DNA of 64,000 nt, from contig OZ241842.1 of the NCBI GenBank assembly GCA_965202675.1, positions 2,001,962-2,065,961 on the forward strand. The letters are read 5' to 3'. This document shows positions 5,408-63,289 of this stretch, piece after piece. The stretch comes from Candidatus Spongiisociaceae bacterium (GTDB lineage Bacteria; Actinomycetota; Acidimicrobiia; Spongiisociales; Spongiisociaceae). The notes beneath the pieces are model-generated. The model made no database searches. It was not told the DNA's origin and saw nothing but the letters and a program-made list of their open reading frames with translations. The position numbers and the translations under genes were made by a program. How positions within the stretch are numbered: position 1 is the stretch's first letter; the number at the start of each line of letters is the position of its first letter.

Positions 5408-5974
5408 ATGACCTTCTCCGACTGGCTGGCGGAGCCCGTCAACTGGGCCTTCCTGGCCCTGGCGGTCCCCATGACGCTGGCGGCCCTGCGGGTGGTGACC
5501 AGCCGCAACGTGGTGCATTCCGCCCTGTTCCTTGTGCTGACCCTGGCCGCCTCCGCCGGGCTGTTCATCCTGCTGTCCGCCGAGTTCGTAGCCTGGGTGC
5601 TGGTGCTGGTCTACATCGGGGCGGTGGTCGTGCTGTTCCTGTTCGGCATCATGATCACCAGGGCGCCCATCGGCCGGGAGTCCGACCTCAGCCACGCCCG
5701 GCGGTGGCCGGCCGCGTTGGCCTCCCTGGCCGTCCTGGCCCTGACGCTGCGGCTGGTCCTGGCGGTCTCCGGCCAGGTGGAGGGATTCGGCGGTCCGCTC
5801 CCGGCGGTGGGGGCGGCCACCCCGTCGGGCGTCCTGGGGGAGGGTTTCATCAGGAAATACCTGATCCCCTTCGAGGCGGTGGGGTTCGTCCTGCTGGCCG
5901 CCCTGATCGGCGGCATCACCCTGGCGCGCAAGGACCTCACCCCCGCCGAGGAGGAAGAAGGGGGGCGGGTGTGA
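5408..5974 (+). CDS. nuoJ: NADH-quinone oxidoreductase subunit J
   Basis: It is a hydrophobic ND6-like protein sitting in the J position of the operon. Confidence 0.85.
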   Translation: MTFSDWLAEPVNWAFLALAVPMTLAALRVVTSRNVVHSALFLVLTLAASAGLFILLSAEFVAWVLVLVYIGAVVVLFLFGIMITRAPIGRESDLSHARRWPAALASLAVLALTLRLVLAVSGQVEGFGGPLPAVGAATPSGVLGEGFIRKYLIPFEAVGFVLLAALIGGITLARKDLTPAEEEEGGRV

Positions 5975-37456: not shown

Positions 37457-37497
37457 GACAATCCGGGGTTCTGGGGTCGGAATCGGGAGGAGATGGG

Positions 37498-48301: not shown

Positions 48302-50379
48302 CCGGCGCGGCGGAGCGGTCGGTGCAGGTGGTGTTCACCCCCTCGGGAAGGCGGGGGCGGGTGAGGGCCGGAACCGCCGTCCTGGACGCGGCCCGCAGCC
48401 TGGGGGTGGACATCGACTCGGTGTGCGGAGGCCGGGGAATATGCGGGCGCTGCCAGATAATGCTGGGCGCGGCGGCGGGAGCGCCCTCCGCCGACGGCGC
48501 CCTTTCACCCCCCGGCCAGACGGAGATGGGCTATCGGAGCCGGCGCCGCCCCCTGCGGGAAGGCCACCGGCTCTCATGCGCCGCCCGGCTGCAGGGCGAC
48601 GCGGTTATCGACGTTCCCCCCTACAGCGCCGTGCACCGCCAAGTGGTGCGAAAACGGCCTGAGGCGGTGGACATTCCCGTGGATCCGGTGGTGCGCCTGC
48701 ACTACGTGGAGGTGGAACCCCCCGACATGCACAAGCAGGCCTCCGATCTGGCCCGGGTGCTCCAGGCGCTGGAAGGGCAGTGGGGGATCTCCGCAGAGGA
48801 GGTGGACCATCACGTGCTGGTCGGTCTGCAGGACGCCCTGCGGGAAGGCGGATGGAAGATAACGCTGGCGGTCCACGACGGGTCGGCGGTGACCGGGGTG
48901 TGGCCGGGCTTCTACGACGGTTCGGTCGGGGTGGCCATAGATGTGGGGTCGACCACCGTGGCCGGGCATCTCTGCGACCTTTCCACGGGTGAGGTGCTGG
49001 CCTCCACCGGGATGATGAACCCCCAGATCCGGTTCGGCGAGGACCTGATGAGCCGGGTTTCCTACGCGATGATGAACGAGGGGGGCGCGGAGGAGCTGAC
49101 CGGCGCGATACGGGAAGCCCTGGACCGGCTGGTGGGAGAGCTGGCGGAAGCGGCCGGGTCGGAGCGCGGCGCGGTGCTGGAGATCGCCTTGGTCGGGAAC
49201 CCCGTCATGCACCATCTGGTGCTGGGGATCGATCCGCGCCGTCTGGGGGTGGCGCCCTTCGCGTTGGCCACCGACGGGGCGGTCCGCATGGAGGCGTCGT
49301 CCGTAGGAATCGAGGCCCACCCCGGCGCCCGCCTCTACGTGCTTCCCTGCGTGGCGGGTCATGTGGGCGCCGACGCGGCCGGCGCCATGCTGTCGGAAGG
49401 CCCCCACCGCGGCCGGGACATCCAGCTGCTGGTGGACGTGGGCACCAACGCCGAGATTGTGTTGGGCAGCGCCGGGCGCCTGCTGGCCGCTTCCAGCCCC
49501 ACCGGTCCGGCCTTCGAAGGGGCCGAGATCGGTTCCGGGCAACGGGCCGCCCCCGGAGCGATCGAGCGGGTGCGCATCGACCGCCGCACCCTGGAACCCC
49601 GCTTCAGGGTGATCGGGGTGGATATGTGGTCGGACGAGGAGGGCTTCGAGGAGGCGGCCGCCGGTGCGGGGGTGACCGGGATATGCGGCTCGGGGATCAT
49701 CGAGGCGGTGGCCGAGCTGGCCCTGTCGGGGGTGGTGTCGGCGGACGGTCTGATCCTGGACACCGGACGGAGCAGGCGGGTGGCCGCGGACGGCCGCACC
49801 GCCTCCTACCTGCTGTACGAGGGGGGCTTGTCCGGCGGCGGGGGCGCCCGGATCGTCATCAGCCAGAACGACGTGAGGGCGATCCAGCTGGCCAAGGCGG
49901 CGCTCTACGCGGGGGTGCGGCTGCTCATGGATCGGCTGGGGGCGGCGGCGGTAGACGAAATCAGGCTGGCCGGCGCCTTCGGCAGCCATATCGATCCCAT
50001 ATATGCAATGGTTCTGGGCATGATCCCCGACTGCGACCCGGACAGGGTGTCGGCGGCGGGCAACGCGGCCGGCGCCGGAGCGATGATGGCCTTGCTGAGC
50101 GGCGCCGCCCGCCGGGAGGTCGAGGAGCTGGTGCGGCGGGTGGAGAAGATCGAGACGGCGGTGGCGTCCGATTTCCAGCAACATTTCGTGGAGGCGATGG
50201 CCATTCCCCATGCCGCCGCCCGCTTCGAGCAGCTGTCCGGCCGGGTGGACCTGTCGGGCATCGCGGCGGGGGACCCGTCTGCCGCCCGCCGCGGCCGCCG
50301 GTCGGGCCGGGCCGGTTCCGGGCGGGGCGGCGCCGGGGGCCGCCGTCCGGCGGCGGCCGCCCGAGAGGCGGCGGTGTGA
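48298..50379 (+). CDS. RamA-like corrinoid reductive activase (N-terminal 2Fe-2S ferredoxin + ASKHA ATPase domain)
   Basis: The N-terminal cysteines CGGRGICGRCQ are followed by a large ASKHA domain (GIAIDVGSTTVAG...LVDVGTNAEIV). Confidence 0.8.
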   Translation: MTGAAERSVQVVFTPSGRRGRVRAGTAVLDAARSLGVDIDSVCGGRGICGRCQIMLGAAAGAPSADGALSPPGQTEMGYRSRRRPLREGHRLSCAARLQGDAVIDVPPYSAVHRQVVRKRPEAVDIPVDPVVRLHYVEVEPPDMHKQASDLARVLQALEGQWGISAEEVDHHVLVGLQDALREGGWKITLAVHDGSAVTGVWPGFYDGSVGVAIDVGSTTVAGHLCDLSTGEVLASTGMMNPQIRFGEDLMSRVSYAMMNEGGAEELTGAIREALDRLVGELAEAAGSERGAVLEIALVGNPVMHHLVLGIDPRRLGVAPFALATDGAVRMEASSVGIEAHPGARLYVLPCVAGHVGADAAGAMLSEGPHRGRDIQLLVDVGTNAEIVLGSAGRLLAASSPTGPAFEGAEIGSGQRAAPGAIERVRIDRRTLEPRFRVIGVDMWSDEEGFEEAAAGAGVTGICGSGIIEAVAELALSGVVSADGLILDTGRSRRVAADGRTASYLLYEGGLSGGGGARIVISQNDVRAIQLAKAALYAGVRLLMDRLGAAAVDEIRLAGAFGSHIDPIYAMVLGMIPDCDPDRVSAAGNAAGAGAMMALLSGAARREVEELVRRVEKIETAVASDFQQHFVEAMAIPHAAARFEQLSGRVDLSGIAAGDPSAARRGRRSGRAGSGRGGAGGRRPAAAAREAAV

Positions 50380-51914
50380 ACGCCCGGCGGGGCCGCAGAG
50401 CCGGCGGCCGGGCGGCGCGCCAGGCGCAGCGGACGGCCCGCGTGATCGAGCAGCAGCCCTTCCTGGTCCGCAGGATCAGCCCCGCAGAGGTGCTGTCGGA
50501 GGAGGGCGTCGAGATCATCGAGCACAACGCCGACACCCTGCTCGAGGAGGCGGGCGTCGAGATCATGGACTATCCGGAGGCGCTGTCCATCTACGCCGGG
50601 GCGGGCGCCGAGGTGGACGGAACCAGGGTTCGTTTTCCCAGGGGCATGTGCCGGGAGCTCATAACCGCTTCGGCGCCGGAGGTGTTCACCCACCACGCCC
50701 GCAACCCGGAACGGTCGGTGTCGATCGGAGACCCGTACACGGTTTTCGCCCCCGCCTACGGACCGCCCTTCGTGCGGGACCTGGAAGGGGGCCGCCGCTA
50801 CGCCACCCTCGGGGACTTCGAGAACTTCGCCAAGCTGACCCACATGTCCCCGGCGCTCCACCACGGCGGAGGGACCCTGTGCGAGCCGGTGGACCGCCCG
50901 GTCAACAAGCGCCACTACGACATGATCTACTCCCATGTCGTCTACCACGACAAGCCGTTCATGTCGTCCGTTACCCAGCCCGAACGAGCCCAGGACTCGG
51001 TGGATATGGCCAAGATCGTGTTCGGCGGGGACTTCGTGCAGAACAACACGGTCCTGATCGGCCTCTGCAACGCCAACTCCCCGATGACCTGGGACCTCGC
51101 CATGCTGGGATCGGCCAAGGTGCTGGCCGAGAACAACCAGTGCGCCCTGATAACCCCGTTCATCGTCGCCGGGGCCATGTCGCCGGTTACGGTGGCGGCT
51201 ACCGCAACCCAGACCCTGGCCGAGGCGATGGCGGGTATGGCCTTCACCCAGATCGTCCGGCCCGGCGCTCCGGTCATATTCGGCTCGTTCGCCGCTTCGA
51301 TGTCGATGCAGAGCGGCGCCCCCACCTTCGGAACCCCGGAGACGGCCTTGGTGCTGGGATCGGTCAAACAGCTGGCGGTGCGGCTGGGGGTGCCGTTCCG
51401 ATCGGGCGGCGCCCTGACCGCCTCCAAGATTCCAGACGCCCAGGCGGCCTATGAAAGCATTATGACCCTTCTGCCCGCGGTCGGGGCCGGCGTCAACTTC
51501 GTTCTGCACTCCGCCGGATGGCTCGAGGGCGGCCTCACGATGGGTTACGAGAAGTTCGTTCTCGACGCAGATCAGGCCTCAATGATGAACCGGCTGACGG
51601 GCGGGGTGGATCTGAGCGAGAACGGCCTGGCGTTGGAGGCCTTGCTGACCAACGGCCCCGGCGGGCATTTCCTGGGCGCCGAACACACCATGGAGAACTT
51701 CGAACAGGCATTCTGGGTGTCGGAGTTGGCCGATGCGGACAGCTTCGAGCAGTGGGAGATCGACGGCGCCCTTGATTCCATCGACCGGGCCAACCGGAAA
51801 TGGAAGCAGATGCTGGCCGAATACCAGCCGCCGCCGCTCGATCAAGCGGTGCACCAGGAGCTGACCGAGTGGATCGCCGCCCGCAAGGCCTCGTTCCCCG
51901 ACTCCGATTACTGA
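50376..51914 (+). CDS. Non-pyrrolysine MttB-superfamily methyltransferase (quaternary amine:corrinoid methyltransferase, MtgB/MtcB-like)
   Basis: This 512-aa TIM-barrel MttB-family protein has no in-frame TAG, so it belongs to the non-Pyl clade. It starts at GTG overlapping the ramA stop. Confidence 0.8.
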   Translation: MNARRGRRAGGRAARQAQRTARVIEQQPFLVRRISPAEVLSEEGVEIIEHNADTLLEEAGVEIMDYPEALSIYAGAGAEVDGTRVRFPRGMCRELITASAPEVFTHHARNPERSVSIGDPYTVFAPAYGPPFVRDLEGGRRYATLGDFENFAKLTHMSPALHHGGGTLCEPVDRPVNKRHYDMIYSHVVYHDKPFMSSVTQPERAQDSVDMAKIVFGGDFVQNNTVLIGLCNANSPMTWDLAMLGSAKVLAENNQCALITPFIVAGAMSPVTVAATATQTLAEAMAGMAFTQIVRPGAPVIFGSFAASMSMQSGAPTFGTPETALVLGSVKQLAVRLGVPFRSGGALTASKIPDAQAAYESIMTLLPAVGAGVNFVLHSAGWLEGGLTMGYEKFVLDADQASMMNRLTGGVDLSENGLALEALLTNGPGGHFLGAEHTMENFEQAFWVSELADADSFEQWEIDGALDSIDRANRKWKQMLAEYQPPPLDQAVHQELTEWIAARKASFPDSDY

Positions 51915-52029
51915 TGGGCTGCTCGAAGGCGTTCGTGCGGTTGCGGCGGAGGGCCTGCTCCTTCTTCCCGGCCCGGATCGGGGGAACCGTCCGCCTCCGC
52001 CCTCTCGGGCCGCCCCTCTAGGGCAGGGC

Positions 52030-52884
52030 GTGGCAGGCCGCCGGCGCCGCCTCGACGGATTCGCCAGAGCCGCCCTCCGGCGGGCTCTGGAAACCCCCAA
52101 ATTCGAGGTGCTTCCCCTCAAAGGAGTGCTGGACCAGGCGGGGATCCTGCCGGAGGGGGCGCAGGTGTCGGTTACCGCCTCTCCTACCAAGACCATGGAA
52201 GACACCATGAACCTGGCCGCCGACCTGCGGCAGCAGGGGTTCGACGTGATACCGCACCTGTCGGCCCGCATGACCCACGACCGGTCGCATCTGGCCTCGC
52301 TCCTGCGGCGGATGGAGGACCTGGAGATATCCCGGGTTTTCGTGGTGGGGGGAGACGCTTCCCAGCGGGGGGATTTCCGGGATTCCTTCTCCTTGCTGCT
52401 GGCCATGGAGGAGATGGGGCACCACCTGACCGAGCTGGGGGTTACGGCCTACCCGGAGGGGCATTCTCTGATATCGGACGACCTGCTGCGGCAGGATCTG
52501 CACAACAAGCAGCCCTACGCCGCCTATATGACCACCCAGATGTGCTTCGACGGGAGGGCCATCGCCGATTTCTTGGCCGGATGCCGGGCCGACGGCGTTT
52601 CCCTGCCGGCGCGGATTGGGATTCCGGGGGTGGGCGACCGGCTGAAGTTGATGAGAATATCTACCCGGATCGGGGTGGGGCAGTCGGTGCGGTTCCTCAC
52701 CAAGCACCGGGGGATGCTGGGGAGGTTCATCCGTCCGGGCGGCTACACACCCGAGGACCTGTTGAGGAGCCTCGCCCCGGTCTTCGCCGCCCCGGAGGCC
52801 GCCGTCATCGGGGTGCATATCTACACTTTCAACCAGTGCGAGACCACCGAGCGGTGGCGGCAGGAGTACCTGGAGAGCCTGTAG
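52030..52884 (+). CDS. metF: 5,10-methylenetetrahydrofolate reductase
   Basis: The MetF fold is present (SVTASP...VIPHLSAR...VFVVGGD...). Length is 284 aa. Confidence 0.8.
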   Translation: MAGRRRRLDGFARAALRRALETPKFEVLPLKGVLDQAGILPEGAQVSVTASPTKTMEDTMNLAADLRQQGFDVIPHLSARMTHDRSHLASLLRRMEDLEISRVFVVGGDASQRGDFRDSFSLLLAMEEMGHHLTELGVTAYPEGHSLISDDLLRQDLHNKQPYAAYMTTQMCFDGRAIADFLAGCRADGVSLPARIGIPGVGDRLKLMRISTRIGVGQSVRFLTKHRGMLGRFIRPGGYTPEDLLRSLAPVFAAPEAAVIGVHIYTFNQCETTERWRQEYLESL

Positions 52885-52936
52885 AGGGCCCCGCCCCGCG
52901 GCCGCAAAAGGGTTGCGGGCCCCAGGACGTCCGGCC

Positions 52937-54691
52937 ATGACCAGCCCCTCATCCCCGGAAGGCCCGGCCGCCCGGTTCGACGACCGGCGCGGCGGCGGCG
53001 CCTTGGAGCTGCGCGATCCCTACCGGGTGCTTGTTGCCTTCCGGTCCGACCAGGCGGCGGATGTGATCGCCGAGGCCGAGGCCGAGGCCCGTTCGGGCGG
53101 CTGGGTGGCCGGGTGCGTCGCCTACGAGGCGGCCCCCGCCTTCGACCGCGCCCTGACGGTCCGCCCGCCCGGCTCCGACCTGCCCCTCGCCTGGTTCGCG
53201 GCCTTCCGGACGGCGGCGCCCGAACCCGCCCGGCGGGGCGGGCCGTACCGTACGGCTCCTTGGCGGCCCGAGATATCCGAGGCCGGGTACATGGAGGACG
53301 CGGCCGCCGTACAGGAACTGATCGCGGCGGGCGACACCTACCAGGCCAACTACACGTTTCGCCTGCGGGGAAGGGTGGAGGGCGACCTGCGGTCCGTCTA
53401 CGCCGATCTGCTCGACGCCCAGGGCGGCGGCCACCACGCCTACCTGGAGACGGGAAACCGCACGGTGGTATCCGCCTCGCCCGAGCTGTTCTTCCGCTGG
53501 GACGGCAGGCGGATAGAGACCAGGCCCATGAAGGGGACCGCCGCCCGCGGACGCTGGGAGCAGGAGGACCGGGCCAACCGGGAGCGGCTGCTGTCGTCCG
53601 GGAAGGACCGGGCCGAGAACGTGATGATCGTCGATCTGTTGCGCAACGACCTGGGAAAGGCCGCCCGGTTCGGAACGGTCGGAGTTGAGCGCCTGTTCGA
53701 GATCGAACGGTTCGAGACGGTCTGGCAGATGACCTCGACGGTGGCCGCCGAAACCCGGCCCGGAGTGGGCCTGTTCGACATCTTCGCCGCCATGTTTCCG
53801 TGCGGTTCGGTCACCGGCGCCCCGAAGGCGAGGACCATGGAGATCATCTCCGATCTGGAGGCTTCCCCGCGGGGCGTCTACTGCGGGGCGATCGGGTTGC
53901 TCGCCCCGCCGGGGTCGGGGCGCCCCCGGGCCGAGTTCTCGGTGGCGATCAGAACCCTGGTCGTCGACGGGCGGGACGGCTCGGCCGAGTACGGGGTGGG
54001 CGGCGGGGTGGTGCACGAGTCCGTGGCGGCCGAGGAATACCGGGAGGCGATGGTCAAGGCAAGGGTGCTGCATCGCCGCAGGAAACCCTTGACGCTGCTG
54101 GAGACGATGCGCTGGGACCCGGAAACGGGGGTATGGCTGCTCGACCGTCATATGGACCGCCTCCGCTCCTCCGCCCGCTACCTGGGCGTCGAGCTTCCCG
54201 AAGCGGAGATCCTCGCCCTGATCGAGGGCGTCGGGGGCGTCCGCCCGTTGCGGATCCGGTTGCTGGTGCCGGAGGCCGGGCCGCCGCGCCTCGAAGCGGC
54301 GCCGCTGGCCGTCCTGCCCCCGGCGGCGGGCCTCGCCCTGGACGACCGTCCGGTCGACCGCTCCGACTTCCTCCGTTACCACAAGACCACCCGCCGGGGC
54401 CCCTACGAGGCGGCGGCGGCCCGGCATCCGGAGGCCGACGACGTGGTGCTGGTCAACGACCTCGGCGAGGTGGTGGAGACCACCGTCGCCAACCTGGCCG
54501 TGCGGCTCGGGGAGGAGTGGTTGACCCCGCCCCTGGAAGCCGGATGCCTTCCCGGCGTCTACCGGGGAGAGCTTCTCGACCGGGGCCTTCTGATCGAACA
54601 GCCGGTGCCGATAGACGCCCTTCTAGCAGCCGACGAAATCGCAGTGCTCAACTCGGTTCAGGGCCGCCGGTCCGCCAAGCTGCTCGGTTAG
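52937..54691 (+). CDS. pabB: Aminodeoxychorismate synthase component I fused to aminodeoxychorismate lyase (PabB-PabC)
   Basis: Chorismate-binding domain motifs are present (PELFF...RPMKGTAARG...NVMIVDLLRNDL...FPCGSVTGAPK). The C-terminal roughly 200 aa form a class-IV aminotransferase-like PabC domain. Confidence 0.8.
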   Translation: MTSPSSPEGPAARFDDRRGGGALELRDPYRVLVAFRSDQAADVIAEAEAEARSGGWVAGCVAYEAAPAFDRALTVRPPGSDLPLAWFAAFRTAAPEPARRGGPYRTAPWRPEISEAGYMEDAAAVQELIAAGDTYQANYTFRLRGRVEGDLRSVYADLLDAQGGGHHAYLETGNRTVVSASPELFFRWDGRRIETRPMKGTAARGRWEQEDRANRERLLSSGKDRAENVMIVDLLRNDLGKAARFGTVGVERLFEIERFETVWQMTSTVAAETRPGVGLFDIFAAMFPCGSVTGAPKARTMEIISDLEASPRGVYCGAIGLLAPPGSGRPRAEFSVAIRTLVVDGRDGSAEYGVGGGVVHESVAAEEYREAMVKARVLHRRRKPLTLLETMRWDPETGVWLLDRHMDRLRSSARYLGVELPEAEILALIEGVGGVRPLRIRLLVPEAGPPRLEAAPLAVLPPAAGLALDDRPVDRSDFLRYHKTTRRGPYEAAAARHPEADDVVLVNDLGEVVETTVANLAVRLGEEWLTPPLEAGCLPGVYRGELLDRGLLIEQPVPIDALLAADEIAVLNSVQGRRSAKLLG

Positions 54692-54837
54692 CTGTGCTTC
54701 CCATGGACGTGGTTGACAGTTTTGGCGGCGGGGTGGCAGGCCGCCCCCGGACGGTCGACCTTCGACCCCGGTCCCCTTGATCACGGGAGGAGCCCTCCGG
54801 GCCGTTGTAGGAGCATATCGTCAGGTGTACGCAACAC

Positions 54838-55608
54838 GTGGAAGGGGAGAGCGGGTCCCTTGCGGAACCGGGCTCTCCCCGGGTAGAATTGTTTGCTCTG
54901 CAACAGTATAGCAGGAAAATGACCGCATTGGAAGCACCGCATCTGGTCATCGGCCGACTGCGCGACTACTTCGCGCGCAGAACCAACTGGCAACGCCGAC
55001 TCTGGAATCCAGGAACCGTCACTGTACTACAGGAGACTTTGGAAGCGGTTCAGCTACTTGAGGGTGAACAAGTCGCTCTAGATGGGTAGCTCCAAGGTTG
55101 CCATGACTAGAAAGGGTATATAATCATAGTTTAGATTGATTACAAAGCATATGATAACCAGGATGATGACGAATGAGCCGCTTAGCTCGGCTCCTCGGCG
55201 ATTGGGCTGTGCCTGTAATCGGCGTGTTTCCGCGGTTGGTCGGCGGAAACAAAACCCTTATCCCTTGGAACTACCCATCTAGGGGCCGTTGAAGCCTTGG
55301 CGAGAACAGCGGAGCGGCGAGCTGGACCGGATTCTGGGATTGGTACTACGGCTAAACGAAAGGCTATCACCGAGACCCTCCGTAAGGTAAGCAAAAGCCA
55401 GATGGTCAGGTATCAGTTTGAGTATCTCCTCCGGGGGGTTGGTGATGGTTACCTGCAACGTTGGTCGGAGAAACTGAGGGACCAGCCAGATAAGATCAAG
55501 ACCGAAGAGGCTTCACGATTAGTGGCGGGGCACCTACTCGGTCTAGGTTTCAGCCCCGATAAGCTCCATCGGTGGTCAACTTGGCTATATAGGCAAAGAC
55601 AGCCCTAA
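54838..55608 (+). pseudogene. Small ORF (~185 aa, unknown function) interrupted in frame by a MITE-like element
   Basis: ORF 54838-55089 stops at the TAG inside the left TIR. ORF 55297-55608 resumes in the same frame. Removing 55078-55278 rejoins them as ...EGEQVAL/GAVEALARTAE.... Confidence 0.45.
55078..55282. mobile_element. MITE-like 205-bp nonautonomous element with 20-bp terminal inverted repeats (CTAGATGGGTAG[C/T]TCCAAGG) and CTAG/TA target duplication
   Basis: The ends are near-perfect inverted repeats (1 mismatch). The interior is AT-rich and non-coding, and the insertion is in frame in the host ORF. Confidence 0.55.
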
Positions 55609-55963
55609 ACGCTAGCAGATCTATTCGAGGAAGCCGAAGCCTTGGCGCGTTCAAGGAAGGCCGAGTGGGTGGTGTTTATCCCGTTCCGAGCCCTTGGGCG
55701 GCATGGCCAAACAATGCCAGACGAGTGGCTTGACCTAGGATAGGCGAGCCGATGGTTGTTAGATCATGTTGGAAGTGTCAAAATACGGTCACTGATCTGG
55801 TTGCTCTTTATGGTATTGGCTGAAACCAACTCTCTCTTCATGCCTTCAAGTACGGGCAGATGCGGTTGCCAATGGGTGGGATGGCTCGTTGCCGAGGGTA
55901 GCCTTGCCCCCGCTGGTGGTTTCATCCTTGAGAAACCTTACGGTTTTAAGGTCCGGTCCCGGT

Positions 55964-57274
55964 TCAACCAAGGGGCAGGGGCGGATGGTCGGGTTGGGGC
56001 AGTCCGGGGCCCCATAGGCCGGCGATCGGGGCGGCTTCTACGCCGCGGTCGAGCTCGTACCGGTGCGGCCCGGTGTGGAATAGCACTCCGCCGTGGAAGC
56101 GGTCTCCGGCTACTTTGTCCCGGAACCAGATCAGGTGGCGGGCATCCGACCGGGTGGGGGCGCGGCCGGCCTTGAACTCGAAGGCGAAGAGCTTCATTCC
56201 GCGCTCGGCCACCAGGTCGATCTCGCGGTCTCCGTTGGCGGTGCGGAGGTGGTACAGCCGCACCCTTCCGTCCGCTTCGGCCTCCACCCGGAGCTGGGCC
56301 GTTATGAAGGTGTCGAGCATCCGGCCCCTCAGATCGGCATCGGAATAGACATCGTCGACGGTCAGATTCAAGGCGGCGCAGGCCAGGCCGGGGTCGGTGA
56401 ACTGGCGCTTGACCCGGTCGACCAGCAGGCGTTTCTGCCGGTTGCCGGTCCAGGGAGGGAGCTCGTCGACAATCCCGAGCGTTGTCAAGGCGTAGAGGTA
56501 GCCGTTGGCGGTGCGTTGGTCGATCCCGACCCGCCCGTGGATGGTCGAGTGCGGTGCCACCCCCGCGGTGTTGAGGGCGTAGGATTCCATGTAGGAGCGG
56601 AAGAGCCGGGCGTCCTTGGGCCGGCCGGTGTCGGCGGCCAGCGAGCGCAGGTCGCGATTGACTATGGCCTCCGAATAGGAACGGAGCCATTGCGCCCGCT
56701 CGCGGCCACCCGGTATTGCGATGGCCTCGGGGAAACCGCTCGCCAGAGCTGTCTCGAGGTACTCGCGCAGTCCGGGCGGGTCGGCGGGTACGCTGAACCG
56801 CCGGTCTCGGTCGTTCCACCGCTCGAACAAGGACGGGGCCGCCGCCGACCCGAAGCGTTCCCGCCCCGTGATGCCCCAGAGGCGTTGACGGACGAGCCTG
56901 CCCGTGCCCGGCCACATATCGGTCAGCAGGTCGTTGCGGGCCGAACCCGTCACGATGAACCTTCCGGGGGCCGGATGGTCGTCGACCTTTCGCTTCACCG
57001 CCCTCAGGACATCGGGGACCAGCTGCCATTCGTCGATCAACAAAGGGGGTTGCCCGGTTGCCGCCGCTATGGGGTCGGCCCGGCACAGGTCCTGATCGTC
57101 GGGGTCGTCGAGGCGCAGCTGCGACGCCGAGAACTCGAGGCCGGTGCGGGTCTTTCCGGCAGCTCGCGGGCCGGTGATGAGCATCCCCGGGAAGTTGTCC
57201 AGGCCCGTTCGGAGGGCGCGGTCGATTATGCGCGGGCGGTACGGCCTCGCACCGGGCGCGTCGTCACCCGGCAT
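55964..57274 (-). CDS. AAA_14/DUF4143-family ATPase (paralog of 37498-39546)
   Basis: It has a Walker A motif (ITGPRAAGKTRT) and a DUF4143-like C-terminal part. Length is 436 aa. Confidence 0.7.
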   Translation of the reverse strand: MPGDDAPGARPYRPRIIDRALRTGLDNFPGMLITGPRAAGKTRTGLEFSASQLRLDDPDDQDLCRADPIAAATGQPPLLIDEWQLVPDVLRAVKRKVDDHPAPGRFIVTGSARNDLLTDMWPGTGRLVRQRLWGITGRERFGSAAAPSLFERWNDRDRRFSVPADPPGLREYLETALASGFPEAIAIPGGRERAQWLRSYSEAIVNRDLRSLAADTGRPKDARLFRSYMESYALNTAGVAPHSTIHGRVGIDQRTANGYLYALTTLGIVDELPPWTGNRQKRLLVDRVKRQFTDPGLACAALNLTVDDVYSDADLRGRMLDTFITAQLRVEAEADGRVRLYHLRTANGDREIDLVAERGMKLFAFEFKAGRAPTRSDARHLIWFRDKVAGDRFHGGVLFHTGPHRYELDRGVEAAPIAGLWGPGLPQPDHPPLPLG

Positions 57275-57299
57275 GAACTCGAACCAAGCAGTTCATGCG

Positions 57300-57560
57300 C
57301 TTCCTGGCCTCATGGTTCATGTATCTCCCGCATGGCGGTTCGTGCGGCTCTGGCATGGTAGTTTATGCTTCTCCCGCATAGTAGTTTATGCATCTGCGGC
57401 ATGGTGGTTCATGTATCTCTCGCATGGCGGTTCGTGCGGCTCTGGCATGGTAGTTTATGCTTCTCCCGCATAGTAGTTTATGCATCTGCGGCATGGTGGT
57501 TCATGTATCTCTCGCATGGCGGTTCGTGCGGCTCTGGCATGGTAGTTTATGCTTCTCCCG
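57300..57560. repeat. Tandem array: ~11 abutting copies of a degenerate 23-bp unit (CATGGNGGTTYRTGYNTCTSNSG), organised as ~2.8 copies of a 92-bp higher-order repeat
   Basis: The 92-bp block recurs at about 57365, 57457 and partly at 57549. It lies between the divergent ATPase (-) and FAH (+) genes. The units abut with no spacers. Confidence 0.8.
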
Positions 57561-57649
57561 CACGTGTGGCCCCGCCCGCCGCCTCCTTCTTTCGACCGGT
57601 GGCCGTTCCTATACAATCACCGCCCGGACGAGCAGGAAGGAAATCAAAG

Positions 57650-58477
57650 ATGAGGATAGGCAGGTACAGGGCCGGGGCGGAGGAGGGTTGGGGTTTCGTG
57701 TCGGCTGACGCAATCCGCCCGGCGGTCGGCGGACCGGACCTGACGGAGGTGCTGGGAGACCCCGCCGCCCTTGCCGGTCTGGCCGGGCAGGCCGGCGCCG
57801 AGATACCGCTCGGCGGAGTCGATCTGCTGGCGCCGCTTCCCAATCCGCCCCAGTTCCTGGGCATCGGCCTCAACTACCGGGGTCATGCCGCCGAGTCGGG
57901 CGCCCCGGTGCCGGAATCGCCGGTGAGCTTCGCGTTCTTCAACTCCTCGATTACCGATCCGGGCGCCGCCGTTCGGTTGCCTCCTTTTACCGACCAGGTG
58001 GACTGGGAGGTCGAGCTGGGGGTGGTGATCGGACGAGAGGCCTGTTGCGTGCCGGTGGAAGAGGCGCTTGATTACGTGGCGGGGTATGTGATCGTGAACG
58101 ACCTTTCGGCGCGGGACATCCAGTTCGCCGAGGCGCAATGGACCCGCGCCAAGTCGTTCGACACCTTCAAGCCGATGGGTCCCTGGATTGTCTCCGCCGA
58201 CGAGCTGGGCGCAGCCGACGACCTCGATGTGAAGCTGTGGGTGAACGACGAGCTGAAGCAGTCGGGCAACACTTCCGATCTGGTCTTTGATGTACCCACC
58301 CTGGTCTCCCACATGTCGCAGCACCTGACGCTGGGGGCGGGGGCGGTGATCTCGACCGGCACCCCGGCCGGAGTGGGAATGGGCCGCAAACCCCCCGAGT
58401 ACCTGGCGCCGGGAGACGTAATGACCCTGGAAATCGAGGGCATCGGCAGGATCACCAACCCAGTAGAGTCCGCCTAG
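57650..58477 (+). CDS. Fumarylacetoacetate hydrolase (FAH)-family protein
   Basis: The start is taken at MRIGRY (residue 96 of ORF 57365-58477), which has an AGGAAGGAAA RBS. FAH-fold motifs are present (GLNYRGHAAE, DWEVELGVVIG, TGTPAGVG). The stop codon lies inside the repeat that begins at 58474. Confidence 0.8.
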   Translation: MRIGRYRAGAEEGWGFVSADAIRPAVGGPDLTEVLGDPAALAGLAGQAGAEIPLGGVDLLAPLPNPPQFLGIGLNYRGHAAESGAPVPESPVSFAFFNSSITDPGAAVRLPPFTDQVDWEVELGVVIGREACCVPVEEALDYVAGYVIVNDLSARDIQFAEAQWTRAKSFDTFKPMGPWIVSADELGAADDLDVKLWVNDELKQSGNTSDLVFDVPTLVSHMSQHLTLGAGAVISTGTPAGVGMGRKPPEYLAPGDVMTLEIEGIGRITNPVESA

Positions 58478-58540
58478 ATGGGTAGTTCCAAGGGATAAGG
58501 GTTTTGTTTCCGCCGACCAACCGCAGAAACACCCAGAACC
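58474..58540. repeat. Third copy of the MITE terminal sequence (52 bp identical to the reverse complement of 55232-55283, ~65 bp similar), inverted relative to the 55232-55283 copy
   Basis: CCTAGATGGGTAGTTCCAAGGGATAAGGGTTTTGTTTCCGCCGACCAACCGC matches the MITE right-end interior. No partner TIR is seen downstream. Confidence 0.5.
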
Positions 58541-58607
58541 GAGTGATTCGTTCCTGCGGGCTCCTTTGTGATTCCCACCAGATCTTTATATATGGTAACT
58601 CAGTTAT

Positions 58608-58853
58608 ATGGATGGGATATATGCTGTTGTGATGGGAGACAGAGGCCGGATCGTGGTGCCCGCCGCGGTGCGCGAACGCGCCGGGCTCTCTGCAGGCACT
58701 CCGTTGGTGGTGGTCGAATCTTCCGAAGGCCTGATTCTGTTGACGCGGGAGCAGCTGCGGGCGCGTATTCGGGATGAGCTGAGCAGCGCTGATCTGGTGG
58801 GGCAACTTCTCGCGGATCGACGGCGGGCGTCCGTACGGGAGGATGCCGGATGA
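58608..58853 (+). CDS. AbrB/MazE/SpoVT-family DNA-binding protein (VapB-like antitoxin), no cognate toxin adjacent
   Basis: VMGDRGRIVVPAAVRERAGLSAGTPLVVV is a swapped-hairpin SpoVT_AbrB motif. The next gene is a dehydrogenase, not a toxin. Confidence 0.55.
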   Translation: MDGIYAVVMGDRGRIVVPAAVRERAGLSAGTPLVVVESSEGLILLTREQLRARIRDELSSADLVGQLLADRRRASVREDAG

Positions 58854-58929
58854 GCATCGCGCATGATGCCGGGTGCGCCGCCGGAAGAGTGGAACAGATC
58901 CGTTGACCGACGCAACCGGCGCAGGGCTT

Positions 58930-59895
58930 ATGAGGGTCGGTTTCATCGGGCTCGGCAACCTGGGCGCAAAGCTGGCGGGGAGCCTGTTGCGCAACGGCTG
59001 CCGGCTGGCGGTCCGCGACCTCGACCGGGCGGCGGCCCGGCCCCTCCTCGAGGCCGGCGCCGAATGGGCCGGCACCGGCCGCGATCTGGCCCGGCGCAGC
59101 GGCCTGGTCGTTACCTGCCTACCGTCGCCGTCCGCGGTGAGGTCGGTCATGGAAGGGGATGAGGGGGTGCTGGCCGGCCTGGGGCCGGGCAAGCTCTGGC
59201 TGGAGATGAGCACCACCGACGAGGCCGAGGTCCGGCGGCTCGGCCGCCTGGCCGCGGAGTCCGGCGCCGGACCGCTGGACGCCCCCGCGTCGGGAGGCTG
59301 CCACCGGGCGGCGACCGGGAACATATCGATCTTTGTCGGCGGCGAGCGGGAGGATTTCGAAAAGGCGCTTCCGGTCCTCGCCGTCATGGGGCGGCGGATA
59401 CTGCACACCGGGCCGCTGGGGTCCGCATCGGTGCTGAAGGTGGTGACCAACTACCTGGCCTCGGTGCATCTGGTCGCGCTGGGGGAGGCGATGATGACCG
59501 CCCGGCGGGCCGGAATCGACCTCGCCGCCGCCTTCGAGGCGATCCGCATCAGCTCCGGCAACTCGTTCGTCCACGAGACCGAATCCCAGGTGATCCTCAA
59601 CGGCAGCTGCGACATCGGCTTCACGATGGACCTGGTGGTGAAGGACATGTCGCTGTTCCAACAGCTCGCCGACCGGCAGGGAACCCCGCTCGAGCTGTCG
59701 CCGCTGGTGCTCGACATCTTCCGCCGGGGCGAGCGGATCTACGGTTCCCGGGCCTGGTCGCCGGGGATCGTGCGCCTTCTCGAGGACGCCTGCGGGGTGG
59801 AGCTGCGGGCGCCGGGCTTCCCGTCGGAGCTCGTCGACGCGGAGCCGGAGGAACCGGGCTGCGAGGTGTTTCCCGCCCCGACGCAGCGGACGTGA
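58930..59895 (+). CDS. NAD(P)-dependent oxidoreductase, 3-hydroxyisobutyrate dehydrogenase (HIBADH) family
   Basis: The start is taken at MRVGFIGLGNLGAKLA, a Rossmann GxGxxG motif. The HIBADH-family C-terminal domain is present. Confidence 0.75.
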   Translation: MRVGFIGLGNLGAKLAGSLLRNGCRLAVRDLDRAAARPLLEAGAEWAGTGRDLARRSGLVVTCLPSPSAVRSVMEGDEGVLAGLGPGKLWLEMSTTDEAEVRRLGRLAAESGAGPLDAPASGGCHRAATGNISIFVGGEREDFEKALPVLAVMGRRILHTGPLGSASVLKVVTNYLASVHLVALGEAMMTARRAGIDLAAAFEAIRISSGNSFVHETESQVILNGSCDIGFTMDLVVKDMSLFQQLADRQGTPLELSPLVLDIFRRGERIYGSRAWSPGIVRLLEDACGVELRAPGFPSELVDAEPEEPGCEVFPAPTQRT

Positions 59896-59897
59896 GG

Positions 59898-60869
59898 TCA
59901 TTCGGCGGGAGCGTCCAGCTGTCCTTCCCAGTGGTAGCCCCAGCAGATTATGCGGCCTTCGCCGTTGATTGCGCAGGTGTGGAAGTAGCCGGCTGACAGG
60001 GCGGTGTATCGGTCTGCCGGGGCGTCGGCCTGCCCGGCTTGGTTTGCCCCCCAGCAGGCGGCGGCGCCATCGGGGCGGAGAGCGCAGGTGTGGGCGCCGC
60101 CCGCCGATACGGCGGCGAAAGGTTCCTCCGGGGCGTCGGCCTGGCCGTCCTCGTTCTTGCCCCAGCAGGTTATGCGGCCTTCGCCGTTGATTGCGCAGGT
60201 GTGGAAGTAGCCGGCTGACAGGGCGGTGTATCGGCCTGCCGGGGCGTCGGCCTGCCCGTGTTGGTTGCTTCCCCAGCAGGCAATGCTTCCGTCCGGACGC
60301 AGGGCGCAGCTGTGTCGGCCTCCGGCGGCCAGGGCGGCGAAGCTTCCCGCCGGCGGCGCCGTCTGGCCGTAGAGGTTGCTTCCCCAGCAGGCGGCCGCCC
60401 CGCTGCCGTCCAGAGCGCAGGTGTGGCCGTCGCCCGCCGATACCGCCCGGTAGGAACCCTCGGGAGGCTCCGACTGTTCGTCCCAGTTGCTTCCCCAGCA
60501 GGCGATTGATCCGTCGGTGCGTATTCCGCAGCTGTGCAGCGTCCCGGCGGCCGCTTCGGTGAAGGTTCCGGCGGGCGGGTCCGACTGGCCGAGGCTGTTG
60601 TTCCCCCAGCAGGCAGCCCCGCGGCCGGTCCGCAGGACGCAGGAATGCAGCCCGCCGGAGGTCAGGGAGCCGAACCCGGCGAACCCGTCCGGCTCGCCGG
60701 ACGGCGCCGGGTCCGAGGCGGTTTGCGCGGGGGCCGAAGCAGGGGCGGGGTCCGGGCCGACGCCGTTTCCGCAGGCCGCCGCCGACAGGGCCAGGGCCGC
60801 GGCCACCAGCGCCGCCGCCGTCCGTCCGGCCGGCGTTGCCGGCGGGAGCGGGGCCGATAAATCAGACAA
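59898..60869 (-). CDS. RCC1-repeat (regulator of chromosome condensation-like beta-propeller) lipoprotein
   Basis: The signal peptide ends in a lipobox (LSAAAC). About six repeats have the form HSC/HTCAL...DGS..CWG.N..GQ. The gene contains a 98-bp near-identical internal duplication. Confidence 0.75.
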   Translation of the reverse strand: MSDLSAPLPPATPAGRTAAALVAAALALSAAACGNGVGPDPAPASAPAQTASDPAPSGEPDGFAGFGSLTSGGLHSCVLRTGRGAACWGNNSLGQSDPPAGTFTEAAAGTLHSCGIRTDGSIACWGSNWDEQSEPPEGSYRAVSAGDGHTCALDGSGAAACWGSNLYGQTAPPAGSFAALAAGGRHSCALRPDGSIACWGSNQHGQADAPAGRYTALSAGYFHTCAINGEGRITCWGKNEDGQADAPEEPFAAVSAGGAHTCALRPDGAAACWGANQAGQADAPADRYTALSAGYFHTCAINGEGRIICWGYHWEGQLDAPAE

Positions 60870-62109
60870 ACGGGAAGGGAGGCGTCCGCAGGGCGTCCAT
60901 ATCCCTTTTCGAGAACCAGGGAGTCAGGGCGGCGTACCACTTCGGCGAGCCTCCCTTATAGCGCCGCTCCACCCGGTTGTTGATGGCGCAGAAAACCTCG
61001 TAGGGGATGGTGTCCGCCCATTCGGCCAGGTCGGAGGCGGTTATCTCGGCCTTCCCCTGCGATCCGATCAGCACCACTTCATCGCCGTTGTAGGCCTCGC
61101 CGTCCGGTCCGATGTCCACCATCATCTGGTCCATGCAGATCCGCCCTACGACCGGCCGTCGGCGCCCCCCGACGAGGACTTCGCCCCGGTCGGACAGGGA
61201 CCGGAAGTAACCGTGCCCGTAGCCGACCGGGACGGTGATCAACCGGGTGTCCCGGTCGGGCGCCCAGGCGCCGCCGTAGCTGACCGGGCTGCCCGCCGGC
61301 TGGACCTTGAAATACACCACCCGGGTCTTCCAGGTCAAGGCCGGGGACACATCAACGGTGCGGGGAACCTGGTCCGGAGCGGCCGGGTACAAACCGTAGA
61401 GCAGGATGCCGGGCCGGACCATATCCAGATAGGAATCCGGATGCTGGAGGATGGCGCCGGAGTTGGCGATGTGGAGCATGGGGGTGGGAATGCCCCGCTC
61501 GGCGTAGAAGGAAACAGCCTCGCGGAACCTTTCCAGCTGGCGGCGGGTCGGCTCCGGATCGGCGCTGTCGGCGGAGGCGAAGTGGCTGTAGACCGCTTCC
61601 ACCTCCACGTGACGGGCCGCATGGGCCGCCTCGAACATGGCGGGGGCGGTGTCGGGGCGCATTCCGATCCGCCCCAGGCCGGTGTCGATCTTGAGGTGGA
61701 CCCGGGCGGTCTTCCCGAGACAGGCGGCGGCGCGGTCGATGTTCCGCAGCTTGTCGACCGAGGAGGCGGTGATGGTCAGGTCGTAGACTATGAAATAGGG
61801 TATCTGGTCCACGTCGATCCCGCCCATGACCAGGATGGGGCAGCGCACCCCGGCCTCCCGGATCAGCGCCCCTTCCTCCACGAACGCCACCGCCAACCCG
61901 GCCGGTTCCAGGGTTTCCAGATGCCGGGCCACCGGAACCAGGCCGTGTCCATAGGCGTTGGCCTTGAGCACCGGAAGCATCCGGGCGCCCCCGACAGCCT
62001 GCTCTACGGCCCGATAGTTGGCGGTGATCCGGTCCAGGTCGATCTCGGCGATGGTCAGAGGGGGGAAGCGGGGGTCTGCAGGAAGGACCAAGGCGGGTTT
62101 TGCCTTCAT
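60862..62109 (-). CDS. alr: Alanine racemase
   Basis: The PLP-binding motif (LPVLKANAYGHG) and overall Alr collinearity (...GRICMDQMMVD...) are present. Confidence 0.85.
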   Translation of the reverse strand: MKAKPALVLPADPRFPPLTIAEIDLDRITANYRAVEQAVGGARMLPVLKANAYGHGLVPVARHLETLEPAGLAVAFVEEGALIREAGVRCPILVMGGIDVDQIPYFIVYDLTITASSVDKLRNIDRAAACLGKTARVHLKIDTGLGRIGMRPDTAPAMFEAAHAARHVEVEAVYSHFASADSADPEPTRRQLERFREAVSFYAERGIPTPMLHIANSGAILQHPDSYLDMVRPGILLYGLYPAAPDQVPRTVDVSPALTWKTRVVYFKVQPAGSPVSYGGAWAPDRDTRLITVPVGYGHGYFRSLSDRGEVLVGGRRRPVVGRICMDQMMVDIGPDGEAYNGDEVVLIGSQGKAEITASDLAEWADTIPYEVFCAINNRVERRYKGGSPKWYAALTPWFSKRDMDALRTPPFPFV

Positions 62110-62157
62110 AGTGTGAGGGTAGCGTTAGCTGGGCAGCCAGACGGGAAACCGCCGGGA

Positions 62158-63285
62158 ATGGAACAAAACGCGCCGCCCCGCTTCTTCGACAGCCGGGCCG
62201 CCTATACGATGTTCGTTACCACCACCACCGAGAAGTCGGAGGTGGCGGCCCGCATCGCCCGGGAGGCCCCGAAGGTGACGCCCGGGCCGGACGCCCTGCG
62301 CCTCTTCGACGCCGGGATGGGCGACGCCACCGTGCTCGTGGAGGCGATGCGCAGGTTCCATGAGGTGTACACCCACGTCCCCTGGCTGGTGGTGGGCAAG
62401 GAGATCAGCATGGAAGACGTGCGGCAGGCGCTCGACAAGCTGCCCGACCGCTTCTACGAACACCCCGAGATGGTCTTCGTGGTTACCAACATGACCTACA
62501 AGGAAGTGTCCTCCGGCCTCCGGCCGCGATCCGGGAAACAGGCGGTGTCTTGGCGCCGGACGGCTCTAGAGGGGTCCACCACCTTCGAGTTCACCCGCCA
62601 GATAAGGGGCATCAGGGACCAGGTGGCCGAGGACTGGCGGGTGATTACCAGCCCCAAGACCGGGAATCCCGTCTACGTCCGCCCGGCCGTCCATGTCATC
62701 TACCGCCAGGACCGGGAGTTCATACTGCGCCGCCTCCTGCCCGAGGAGGACACCTATCGGGGTTCGTACGATCTGATCATCGCCTCCCAGCCCTACCGGG
62801 CGCGCACCACCGCCGAGCACAAGGTCAGGACGGTGATCGGGCCCCTGGCCAGGATGCTGGCGCCGGGGGGGCGCCTGCTGGGGATCCACGCCTACGGCCA
62901 TGATCCGGGCATCGAGATCATCCGCAACCTGTGGCCCGGCGAGAACCCCTTCTGGACCGACCGCCGCGCCCTGCTGTCCGAGGCCGCCCGCCGGCTGTCG
63001 GCGCCGGAGGACCGGGATCTGACAATGGTGGATTCGACCGACGAGGAGTCGCTGTTCCGCTACGAGATGCAGGTCATGCCGGTGGACGTCCAGGAACACA
63101 TCGGCACCTCCTCCATCCTGGCGGCTTGGAACGCGGCGGCCTACGTAGCGCAGATAGACGAGCAGCGGATGGCCGAGGCGGTGGCGTCCGGCGCCTATCT
63201 GGAGGCCGCCCGGTCGGTGATCGAACGCTGCGGCAGGGTGTGGTTCCAGGACGAGAGCTACGTCATCTTCCGGAAACCCCGGTAA
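62158..63285 (+). CDS. Hypothetical protein (375 aa), no domain recognised
   Basis: This is the C-terminal 375 codons of the long ORF 60487-63285, taken from ATG 62158. Its upstream part is antisense to alr and the RCC1 gene. Confidence 0.5.
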   Translation: MEQNAPPRFFDSRAAYTMFVTTTTEKSEVAARIAREAPKVTPGPDALRLFDAGMGDATVLVEAMRRFHEVYTHVPWLVVGKEISMEDVRQALDKLPDRFYEHPEMVFVVTNMTYKEVSSGLRPRSGKQAVSWRRTALEGSTTFEFTRQIRGIRDQVAEDWRVITSPKTGNPVYVRPAVHVIYRQDREFILRRLLPEEDTYRGSYDLIIASQPYRARTTAEHKVRTVIGPLARMLAPGGRLLGIHAYGHDPGIEIIRNLWPGENPFWTDRRALLSEAARRLSAPEDRDLTMVDSTDEESLFRYEMQVMPVDVQEHIGTSSILAAWNAAAYVAQIDEQRMAEAVASGAYLEAARSVIERCGRVWFQDESYVIFRKPR

Positions 63286-63289
63286 TCCC

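Follow-up and report, generated by a model that had tools for sequence, protein, structure and literature searches.

A solo MITE end at the stop codon of an FAH-family hydrolase gene in an uncultured sponge symbiont, very probably the stump of a complete element truncated by deletion

Correia elements of Neisseria are short (~200 bp), non-coding sequences bounded by TIRs, which occur in multiple strain-polymorphic copies, often adjoin gene ends, and are commonly truncated. The MITEs considered here resemble them in these features, and we know of no sequence relationship between the two. In the IS982 family, the actinobacterial ISCef2 is 1017 bp long and encodes a 301-aa transposase; the ends of the family are said to carry a conserved 5'-AC-3', and its direct repeats vary in length, from 0 to 7 bp among the members shown (PMC7335449). 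The same review does not mention MITE derivatives of IS982 (PMC7335449). IS5 has the target C(A/T)A(G/A), which is duplicated on insertion (PMC11894529). The locus described here lies in a 64-kb window (the whole stretch of DNA that was analysed) from a Candidatus Spongiisociaceae bacterium.

On sequence grounds, the terminal repeats of the MITEs in the window appear to belong to an IS982-family IS of Acidimicrobiia sponge symbionts. The 17–19-nt terminal repeat also bounds elements of 1030–1090 bp in three sequences from such symbionts (L048, L031, and L051), and these elements have one ORF, encoding a 302-aa transposase that carries a DDE_Tnp_1 domain and scores 163–180 bits on the NCBIfam IS982 model (NF033520, cut-off 130), with weaker matches to IS5-family models. 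The family is therefore like IS982 in the size of its full-length relatives and in their IS982-passing transposase. However, its ends, (CTA)GATGGGTAG, differ from the conserved 5'-AC-3', and a fixed CTAG target is found instead of direct repeats of variable length. Because the ends and the CTAG flanks depart from the family description, the IS982 placement rests on the transposase and not on the ends. The elements are like IS5 in having a CTAG target, which is present once in the empty site and flanks an inserted copy at either end, whereas their transposase falls under the IS5 cut-offs and over that of IS982. Unlike the described IS982 elements, those in the window are only non-autonomous derivatives, and tblastn found no IS982 transposase in its 64 kb. 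A literature search found nothing specific on IS982 MITEs or on CTAG targeting by IS982.

The MITE family occupies two sites in the window (Table 1), each of which could be compared with an empty allele. A complete copy consists of an element of 197–199 bp plus a CTAG on each side. The left MITE is absent from L075, whose flanks are 98.9–99.1% identical to the window; the empty site there reads GTCGCTCTAGGGGCC, and the insertion adds 201 nt. The empty site at the FAH stop, in L085, reads GCCTAG|ATCCTGCGCACACG, and the identical flank follows a complete MITE in L076. In both cases, the empty site has a single CTAG and the filled site a duplicated one, showing that CTAG is the family's target tetranucleotide; duplication of 4 bp (CTAG) or of 2 bp (TA) leads to the same empty site. 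Almost every family copy has the flanks CTA|GATG...CATC|TAG, with no direct repeat outside them.

The two sites are linked by an inverted repeat, whose arms were found at 55219–55283 and 58473–58537 in a repeat search of the window (65 nt, 95% complementary). Base-by-base comparison confirmed the perfect 52-bp repeat of the preliminary description and moved its right arm by 1 nt: the reverse complement of 55232–55283 corresponds to 58473–58524 without a mismatch. A single mismatch follows at 58525 (A versus G), identity resumes over 58526–58532, and matches are at chance level from 58533 onward. The further similarity of about 15 bp previously noted thus comprises 7 nt of genuine homology, the remainder being noise, and comparison with a sister strain placed the homology boundary at 58532/58533. 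The tips do oppose each other, as had been described, across 55284–58472. The window has three copies of the 20-nt terminal repeat, CTAGATGGGTAG[CT]TCCAAGG, one each at 55078 (+), 55263 (-), and 58474 (+), whereas 100 dinucleotide-preserving shuffles gave none. Neither arm of the inverted repeat matched an Rfam family, and no tRNA att site was found at either.

Table 1. Features of the locus (positions are counted from the first nucleotide of the window).
Feature	Position	Strand	Evidence or remark
Low-GC pseudogene, function not assigned	54838..55792	+	Split by the full MITE; nonsense changes at 55606 and 55741
Complete MITE, polymorphic insertion	55078..55282		A end 55078, B end 55282; terminal repeats 19/20 complementary
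AAA_14/DUF4143 ATPase, outside the element	55964..57274	-	Pfam PF13173 and PF13635
23-bp tandem array between ATPase and FAH, outside the element	57306..57581		Repeat search of the window
FAH-family hydrolase, intact, 275 aa	57650..58477	+	Pfam PF01557, E = 1.7e-72, residues 70-272
FAH TAG stop, native	58475..58477	+	With the preceding C, the CTAG insertion target
Truncated ('solo') MITE B end	58474..58532	+	Matches the reverse complement of 55224-55282 at 58/59 nt
vapC (PIN) remnant, last 4 codons and TGA; right edge of the 932-bp deletion	58533..58546	+	L076 alignment
AbrB/MazE-like gene, 81 aa	58608..58853	+	PF04014, TIGR01439

The FAH stop codon lies within the CTAG of the repeat tip, as the preliminary description had observed, and from this it had concluded that the repeat donates the stop. 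This conclusion was not supported. In L085, a relative with no MITE, the coding sequence ends in ...GAGTCCGCCTAG and runs into a non-MITE flank, with the stop reading GCCTAG|ATCCTGCGC. The Pfam FAA_hydrolase profile is matched in the window protein up to position 213 of 214, and the C-termini of most close homologues fall close to that of the window protein (275–279 aa), with lengths of 275–277 aa predominating; a longer native C-terminus, which had been considered beforehand, was not found in relatives. The window protein and its cluster representative had no match in an exact look-up; a cluster member (P0141, P0151) and the 81-aa MazE-like protein took their place. On the basis of these sequences, the TAG is native and not MITE-donated; with its preceding C, it forms the insertion target because the family inserts at CTAG. 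The MITE landed on the CTAG made up of the last base of the final Ala codon (GCC) and the stop, and left the FAH protein unaltered. A stop codon donated by a transposon should accordingly not be read from a single genome.

The repeat at the FAH stop consists of a copy of the CTAG target (58474–58477), a 16-nt TIR, and a subterminal hairpin region, with its tip pointing left, toward FAH. Its homology to the MITE is confined to 59 nt of one terminus, and no partner repeat was found to the right of it within 4 mismatches; the best decayed candidate seen by eye matched at 11/20 positions and was attributed to chance. At the same site, L076 carries a complete MITE at positions 42–246, which shares 97.6% identity with the MITE of the window; the repeat aligns, up to 58532, with the first 59 nt of this L076 copy. 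The copy is followed in L076 by 786 bp that are missing from the window and encode a Phd/YefM antitoxin (PF02604, TIGR01552) and a PIN toxin (PF01850), and then, from position 1033, by sequence that aligns with the window from 58533 onward. The PIN-domain ORF spans positions 624–1046 of L076 and ends in ...ACC AGA ACC GAG TGA. L077 starts inside the FAH-side MITE and agrees with L076 from there on, so that both have the order complete MITE, phd-vapC, and mazE-like gene. These alignments show a single 932-bp deletion, in which the MITE lost its distal 146 bp and only the last four codons of phd-vapC were left. The suggestion of a solo TIR remnant was thereby borne out, and we are highly confident that the third copy goes back to a second MITE of ~200 bp, once complete, of which a deletion left this solo end as a stump.

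The deletion is present in the window and in a 3.16-Mb relative, and L081 has the same allele as the window, with 98.7% identity over 12.3 kb. A separate 488-bp deletion affects the phd-vapC module in L079, giving, with the allele of L085, three independent degraded phd-vapC alleles (window/L081, L079, and L085). This is like the decay of other chromosomal type II TA modules (phd/yefM-vapC), in that a Phd/YefM antitoxin and a PIN toxin were lost; it differs in that the deletion happened to begin inside an adjacent MITE and so created a solo end. The mazE-like gene, whose protein is found in identical form on L076–L080 and which is syntenic in the more distant L074, is the conserved right-hand neighbour and was moved next to FAH by the deletion. 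With an identity of only 97% between L076 and the window, the junction is placed to within ~2 nt, and it contains one extra C that the comparison with L076 does not explain. The deletion probably occurred by illegitimate recombination, since the junction shows no clear microhomology. Slippage was considered for the GTTTCCG...GACCA motifs of the MITE hairpin and vapC, but these are out of register with the breakpoints, and a transposase-mediated adjacent deletion was ruled out since the element's own A end was deleted. The locus thus offers fully resolved alleles in an uncultured sponge symbiont: empty, with the full MITE, with the full MITE and an internally deleted TA module, and with the truncated MITE.

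That the stump was never complete, having originated in an insertion that aborted or involved one end only, or in gene conversion from the end of the upstream MITE, would fit the presence of only one end in the window and the one-ended family copies found elsewhere (L002, L017, and L022). This reading is nevertheless almost certainly wrong, given that this very CTAG carries a complete MITE in L076 and L077 and that the window sequence picks up exactly at the 3' tail of the vapC located after that MITE, which is the pattern of a deletion, unlike that of a partial insertion. MITEs can affect neighbouring transcripts in other bacteria, as in the case of the Correia elements, and the retained 59 nt contain a hairpin with an 8-bp stem directly after the stop codon, which raises the possibility that this end has been recruited to serve the FAH transcript at its 3' end (as a terminator or stabilizing hairpin), and that just the terminal repeat and the hairpin were retained on that account. 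We consider such co-option extremely unlikely: the FAH-sense fold was no better than that of shuffled sequence (z = +0.27), the sole substitution in the stump disrupts a stem pair on that strand, the search for a terminator-like or promoter-like site found none, there was no Rfam match, and the right breakpoint lies inside vapC, with no sign of selection for the boundary. The stump left by the deletion is an ordinary relic and no switch, and it is probably inert because a single end remains, the window encodes no transposase, and the RNA fold of the stump lacks stability.

The repeats do bracket the ATPase, the array, and FAH geometrically, as previously described, but this is incidental because the segment exists without either MITE: in L085, which has no MITEs, the ATPase, the array, and FAH keep their order and orientation, and L075 lacks the left MITE. 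The ATPase, which lies at the same place in L085, matches the PADLOC candidate PDC-S01 (E = 5.9e-84). The arrangement also differs from a composite transposon, the tips at 55282 and 58474 facing inward and the cargo order occurring in L085 without a MITE. The left MITE is a separate insertion, 3.2 kb upstream and in the opposite orientation, into an already decaying gene. In silico removal of this MITE joined the two ORFs of the pseudogene in frame; the gene is also truncated at its 3' end by an 894-bp deletion relative to L085, had no Pfam matches, and has an uninterrupted homologue of 361 aa (P0121) in L075. The 52–60 bp of inverted homology would then be a by-product of two independent insertions.

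This homology raises the question, already posed in the preliminary description, of whether the 3.2-kb segment undergoes inversion in the population through homologous recombination. With 52 bp identical and 59 nt at 98%, inverted and 3.2 kb apart, the repeats are longer than the minimum for RecA-dependent recombination, and strains combining a complete FAH-side MITE with the upstream copy would have repeats of ~200 bp. The homology is thus a possible substrate in principle, at most a weak one in our judgement, and could support rare inversion. However, the consensus assemblies that span the segment (window, L081, and L085) all have the same orientation of FAH relative to pabBC and the ATPase, with no inverted arrangement among them, and L074 keeps the FAH orientation between pabBC and mazE. 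The FAH–MITE–phd junction of L076 is un-inverted, and its outer flank is the empty-site flank of L085, which rules out the L076 arrangement as an inversion product. The repeats came from two independent insertions and a deletion and not as a designed pair, and no invertase or site-specific recombinase gene was found in or beside the segment (ORFs: ATPase, FAH, the pseudogene, and the AbrB/MazE-like gene). Flipping in the population is therefore very unlikely. An inversion would create the junctions CCCATCTAGGCGGACTCTAC or TTCAACGGCCCCTAGATGGG, and reads from it would join ...CTACCCATCTAG to GCGGACTCTACTGG, which is the 3' end of FAH in reverse complement. The inverted repeat, which had been proposed as a lead, is thus neither a switch, a cassette boundary, nor a gene-altering insertion; it is a scar from the insertion of a MITE and from a subsequent deletion, in which a toxin–antitoxin module was lost as well. 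The register of the 23-bp array within the segment differs between strains.

The insertion at the FAH stop has counterparts in other genomes, where the in-frame TAG stop of a Pfam-verified gene directly adjoins a family copy in six further cases; when only such genes are counted, 7 of ~53 examined ends sit exactly on a stop codon. A count of long open frames ending at the boundary TAG was dropped, the three frames being similar in these high-GC genomes (15, ~18, and ~10 of 56). Because CTAG is ~7-fold depleted in the window's genome, TAG stops preceded by C may be preferred, harmless landing pads. For annotation, it is useful that CTAG is the target of these IS982-related elements, which for this reason often lie on TAG stops without altering the protein. 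The same 20-nt termini, with similar subterminal sequence, were found in Acidimicrobiia and a gammaproteobacterial sponge symbiont (Ca. Spongiisociaceae), suggesting that the family may have spread across phyla inside sponge holobionts. A joint reading, in which an undescribed IS982 subgroup with a strict, IS5-like CTAG target spawned MITEs of ~200 bp that spread across phyla, used stop codons as landing pads, and here allow rare inversion of 3.2 kb, is tentative, and we give it somewhat less than an even chance. A scan of JGI metagenomes for the 24-nt B-end sequence gave no matches, the sub-family being absent from that collection. In sponge-symbiont MAGs, the terminal repeat is multi-copy, and related MITEs occupy 16 loci in one Spongiisociaceae MAG and six in Acidimicrobiia OY282370.1.

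The third repeat copy, at the 3' end of the FAH gene, is the stump of a MITE that was once complete. The inverted repeat noted near the FAH stop codon in the preliminary description was recovered by a repeat search of the window, with the true coordinates shifted by 1 nt, and base-by-base comparison of the third copy with the full MITE gave 52 identical positions. Similarity had been thought to continue for about 15 bp more, which was an overestimate: after a single mismatch at 58525, seven further identities extend to 58532, beyond which matching is at chance level. When the entire MITE was aligned locally to 58473-58900 in either orientation, no similarity past the first 59 nt was detected. 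The 20-nt tip, CTAGATGGGTAG[CT]TCCAAGG, occurs three times in the 64 kb and not once across 100 shuffles of the window; two of these tips delimit the full MITE, and the one at the FAH gene is solitary.

Coordinates of the MITE copies, neighboring genes, and related loci
Feature	Sequence	Position	Remarks
Inverted-repeat arms	window	55219-55283, 58473-58537	65 nt, 95% complementary
Identical stretch	window	58473-58524	vs reverse complement of 55232-55283
20-nt tips	window	55078 (+), 55263 (-), 58474 (+)	
Full MITE-like unit	window	55078-55282	205 bp
FAH ORF	window	57650-58477 (+)	TAG stop 58475-58477, within CTAG of the third copy's tip
DUF4143/AAA_14 ATPase	window	55964-57274 (-)	PADLOC candidate defense family PDC-S01 (PDLC04790), E = 5.9e-84
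ATPase paralogue	window	37486-38775	30% identity
23-bp tandem array	window	57306-57581	92-bp super-period
AbrB/MazE-like gene	window	58608-58853	
Gene split by the full MITE	window	54838-55792	
End of PIN toxin gene	window	58533-58546	final four codons plus TGA
FAH 3' end	L076	1-41	
Complete MITE	L076	42-246	97.6% identity to reverse complement of window MITE
Segment missing from window	L076	247-1032	786 bp
Phd/YefM antitoxin	L076	within the 786 bp	94 aa; PF02604 6.8e-7, TIGR01552 3.6e-8
PIN toxin, overlapping antitoxin ORF	L076	within the 786 bp	140-149 aa; PF01850 4.2e-10
Deletion in window	L076	101-1032	932 bp
Collinear region	L076	after 1032	window 58533-59266
Long unit	L048	2711-3804	one 302-aa ORF
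Long unit	L031	5798-6831	one 302-aa ORF
Long unit	L051		one 302-aa ORF

Five short contigs of related strains were found by exact look-up of the downstream 81-aa MazE/AbrB-like protein. In contig L076 (ENA ERZ23495661), a complete MITE and a phd-vapC toxin–antitoxin module lie between the FAH 3' end and the sequence collinear with the window, and contig L077, which begins within the MITE, matches L076 at 99.8% from there. The presence of the vapC tail in the window indicates a deletion there, by which 146 bp of the MITE and nearly all of phd-vapC were lost, so that the reading of the third copy as a solo remnant was borne out and given a mechanism. No clear microhomology was found at the deletion junction, and at 97% identity to the window, L076 places this junction only to within ~2 nt. 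The same stump occurs in L081, which comes from a 3.16-Mb chromosome (ERZ25070167) and is collinear with window 51649-64000 (98.7%), which means that the window allele is not an assembly artefact. The phd-vapC module is being lost repeatedly within this group of strains: contig L079 has an independent 488-bp deletion inside it (L079 139-147; L076 365-852), whose junction has 9 nt of overlap, and contig L085 (JGI 3300006527) has phd fragments only. In the window (58608-58853 and 58850-58905), the AbrB/MazE-like gene has no recognizable toxin partner, and a 35-nt indel lies just 3' of it in contig L080.

A truncated MITE made by deletion is an entirely familiar kind of object. Related Acidimicrobiia (L002, L017, L022, L037, and L064) contain further copies of this MITE/IS family that are one-ended or truncated, so the family is commonly reduced to solo ends. 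No function is indicated for the stump by its sequence: it has no Rfam match and no promoter-like or terminator-like consensus, its fold on the FAH-sense strand is no better than that of shuffled sequence (z = +0.27), and on the same strand its sole substitution disrupts a base pair of the stem. Since it retains a single end and the window encodes no transposase, the stump is very probably immobile.

The proposal that the MITE donated the FAH stop codon was rejected. In L085, which is 95–97% identical to the window and contains no repeat copy anywhere, the FAH TAG is present, indicating that the element inserted onto the native stop; insertion at CTAG regenerates TAG. The FAH stop is TGA in a relative with 76% identity (L074), so TAG is specific to the window's lineage, though older than the insertion. 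Nor is a longer C-terminus typical: the alignment of the FAH protein to Pfam FAA_hydrolase reaches profile position 213/214; among the close homologues read, leaving aside the identical P0001, 22 of 24 are 275–277 aa long (the other two, 278 and 279 aa), and most terminate at a similar position, in ...NPVEAG, AS, AA, or AAC. Six more family copies in other genomes adjoin in-frame TAG stops of Pfam-verified genes (Peripla_BP_6, HpaB, alpha/beta hydrolase, LuxR-type response regulator, Sdh_cyt, and AbiEii).

The two copies face each other across the ATPase, the tandem array, and the FAH gene, and had been suggested to bracket this segment as an inversion substrate. However, L085, with neither MITE, has pabBC, homologues of the pseudogene, the DUF4143 ATPase (minus strand), and FAH (plus strand) arranged and oriented as in the window, and the bracketing therefore has no significance. 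In the more distant L074, the order is pabBC ... FAH, mazE-like gene, NAD-binding dehydrogenase, and alanine racemase; together, L085 and L074 indicate that the FAH orientation in the window is ancestral relative to both neighbors. Judged on consensus assemblies, inversion between the repeats is unsupported, because no inverted arrangement was found among the assemblies examined and no recombinase gene lies near the segment. The left MITE is missing from L075 and the right one from L085; the two are independent insertions in opposite orientations. A composite transposon is ruled out by the inward-facing tips. Downstream of FAH in L085 (8734-16731), a dCache sensor, NifU, ornithine cyclodeaminase, and DHDPS take the place of mazE and the dehydrogenase, so that synteny breaks at the MITE/toxin–antitoxin site.

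Nearly all complete copies are flanked as cTA/GATG...CATC/TAg, and the outer sequences of the two sides are unrelated, placing the target duplication within CTAG. When the left MITE was removed and one CTAG kept, ORFs 54838-55080 and 55283-55608 were joined in frame, and the reconstructed fusion protein retrieved P0121 with 100% identity across the junction. The contig of P0121, L075 (ENA ERZ23495640; 98.9–99.1% identity to window 50370-56084), has the empty site GTCGCTCTAGGGGCC, where the window has a 201-nt insertion; the empty FAH site in L085 reads ...GAGTCCGCCTAG/ATCCTGCGCACACG. These two empty sites confirm that the duplication falls within CTAG. It may comprise 4 bp (CTAG) or the central TA alone, the empty site being identical either way. 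CTAG is scarce in the window (29 occurrences vs ~196 expected by base composition); the occurrences are grouped at 29.0-33.0 kb, 37.4 kb, and 54.6-55.7 kb, and these clusters may be marks of foreign DNA.

A scan for the motif GATGGGTAGYTCCAAGG in one genome per species (596 Gb) yielded 69 loci, where ~140 chance matches are expected for a 17-mer by our own estimate, and most single matches have unrelated flanks. Several sponge-associated MAGs contain many matches, there preceded by CTA: 16 in OZ251535.1 (Ca. Spongiisociaceae, Gammaproteobacteria), six in OY282370.1 and three in OY762464.1 (both Acidimicrobiia), and one each in four other Acidimicrobiales/Acidimicrobiia MAGs. Pairing of the ends gave non-coding units of 184–249 bp (mostly 198–200 bp) and units of 1030–1090 bp. 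The MITEs share two distinguishable ends, A (...CCAAGGT[TC][AG]CCC...) and B (...CCAAGGGAT[AG][AG]GG...GTTC...); the full MITE of the window has both, and the third copy B only. The 302-aa ORF of the long units contains a DDE_Tnp_1 domain and scores 163–180 bits on the NCBIfam IS982 equivalog (cut-off 130), so that the parent element, going by its transposase, is a member of the IS982 family. In size and ORF length it agrees with actinobacterial members such as ISCef2 (PMC7335449), but its ends lack the conserved 5'-AC-3' of the family description, and its fixed CTAG target is a second departure, resembling IS5, which duplicates the 4 bp CTAG (PMC11894529). MITE derivatives are absent from the IS982 review (PMC7335449), and a full-text literature search found nothing tying IS982 to MITEs or to CTAG targeting.

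The transposase gene was restricted to Acidimicrobiia among the fetched loci, and tblastn found no IS982-type transposase gene in the 64-kb window. MITEs of ~199 bp with the same 20-nt termini, and subterminal sequence similar to the A end of the window MITE, are numerous in OZ251535.1, a gammaproteobacterial sponge symbiont (L004, L006, L018, L025, L027, L029, L035, L036, L044, L053, L055–L058, L061, and L067); no transposase was seen in these loci. Transfer between phyla inside sponges is possible, and only the wider MITE family, which targets CTAG and is found in sponge symbionts of more than one phylum, might merit a separate look.

The gene interrupted by the full MITE has no Pfam or PADLOC match and a GC content of 47–57%, vs ~68% in its surroundings. 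Compared with L075, it carries two nonsense changes (55606 C>T and 55741 G>T), and it is short of 894 bp found in L085 (5238-6131), with 6 nt of overlap (window 55787-55792). At its end, contig L075 diverges within the 3' portion of the ATPase gene: its final 76 nt (5516-5591; window 56085 onward) match neither the window nor any fetched locus and represent either a structural variant or a contig-end assembly artefact. Against L082, L083, and L085, the tandem array can be aligned in several shifted registers, which suggests copy-number or register differences between strains.
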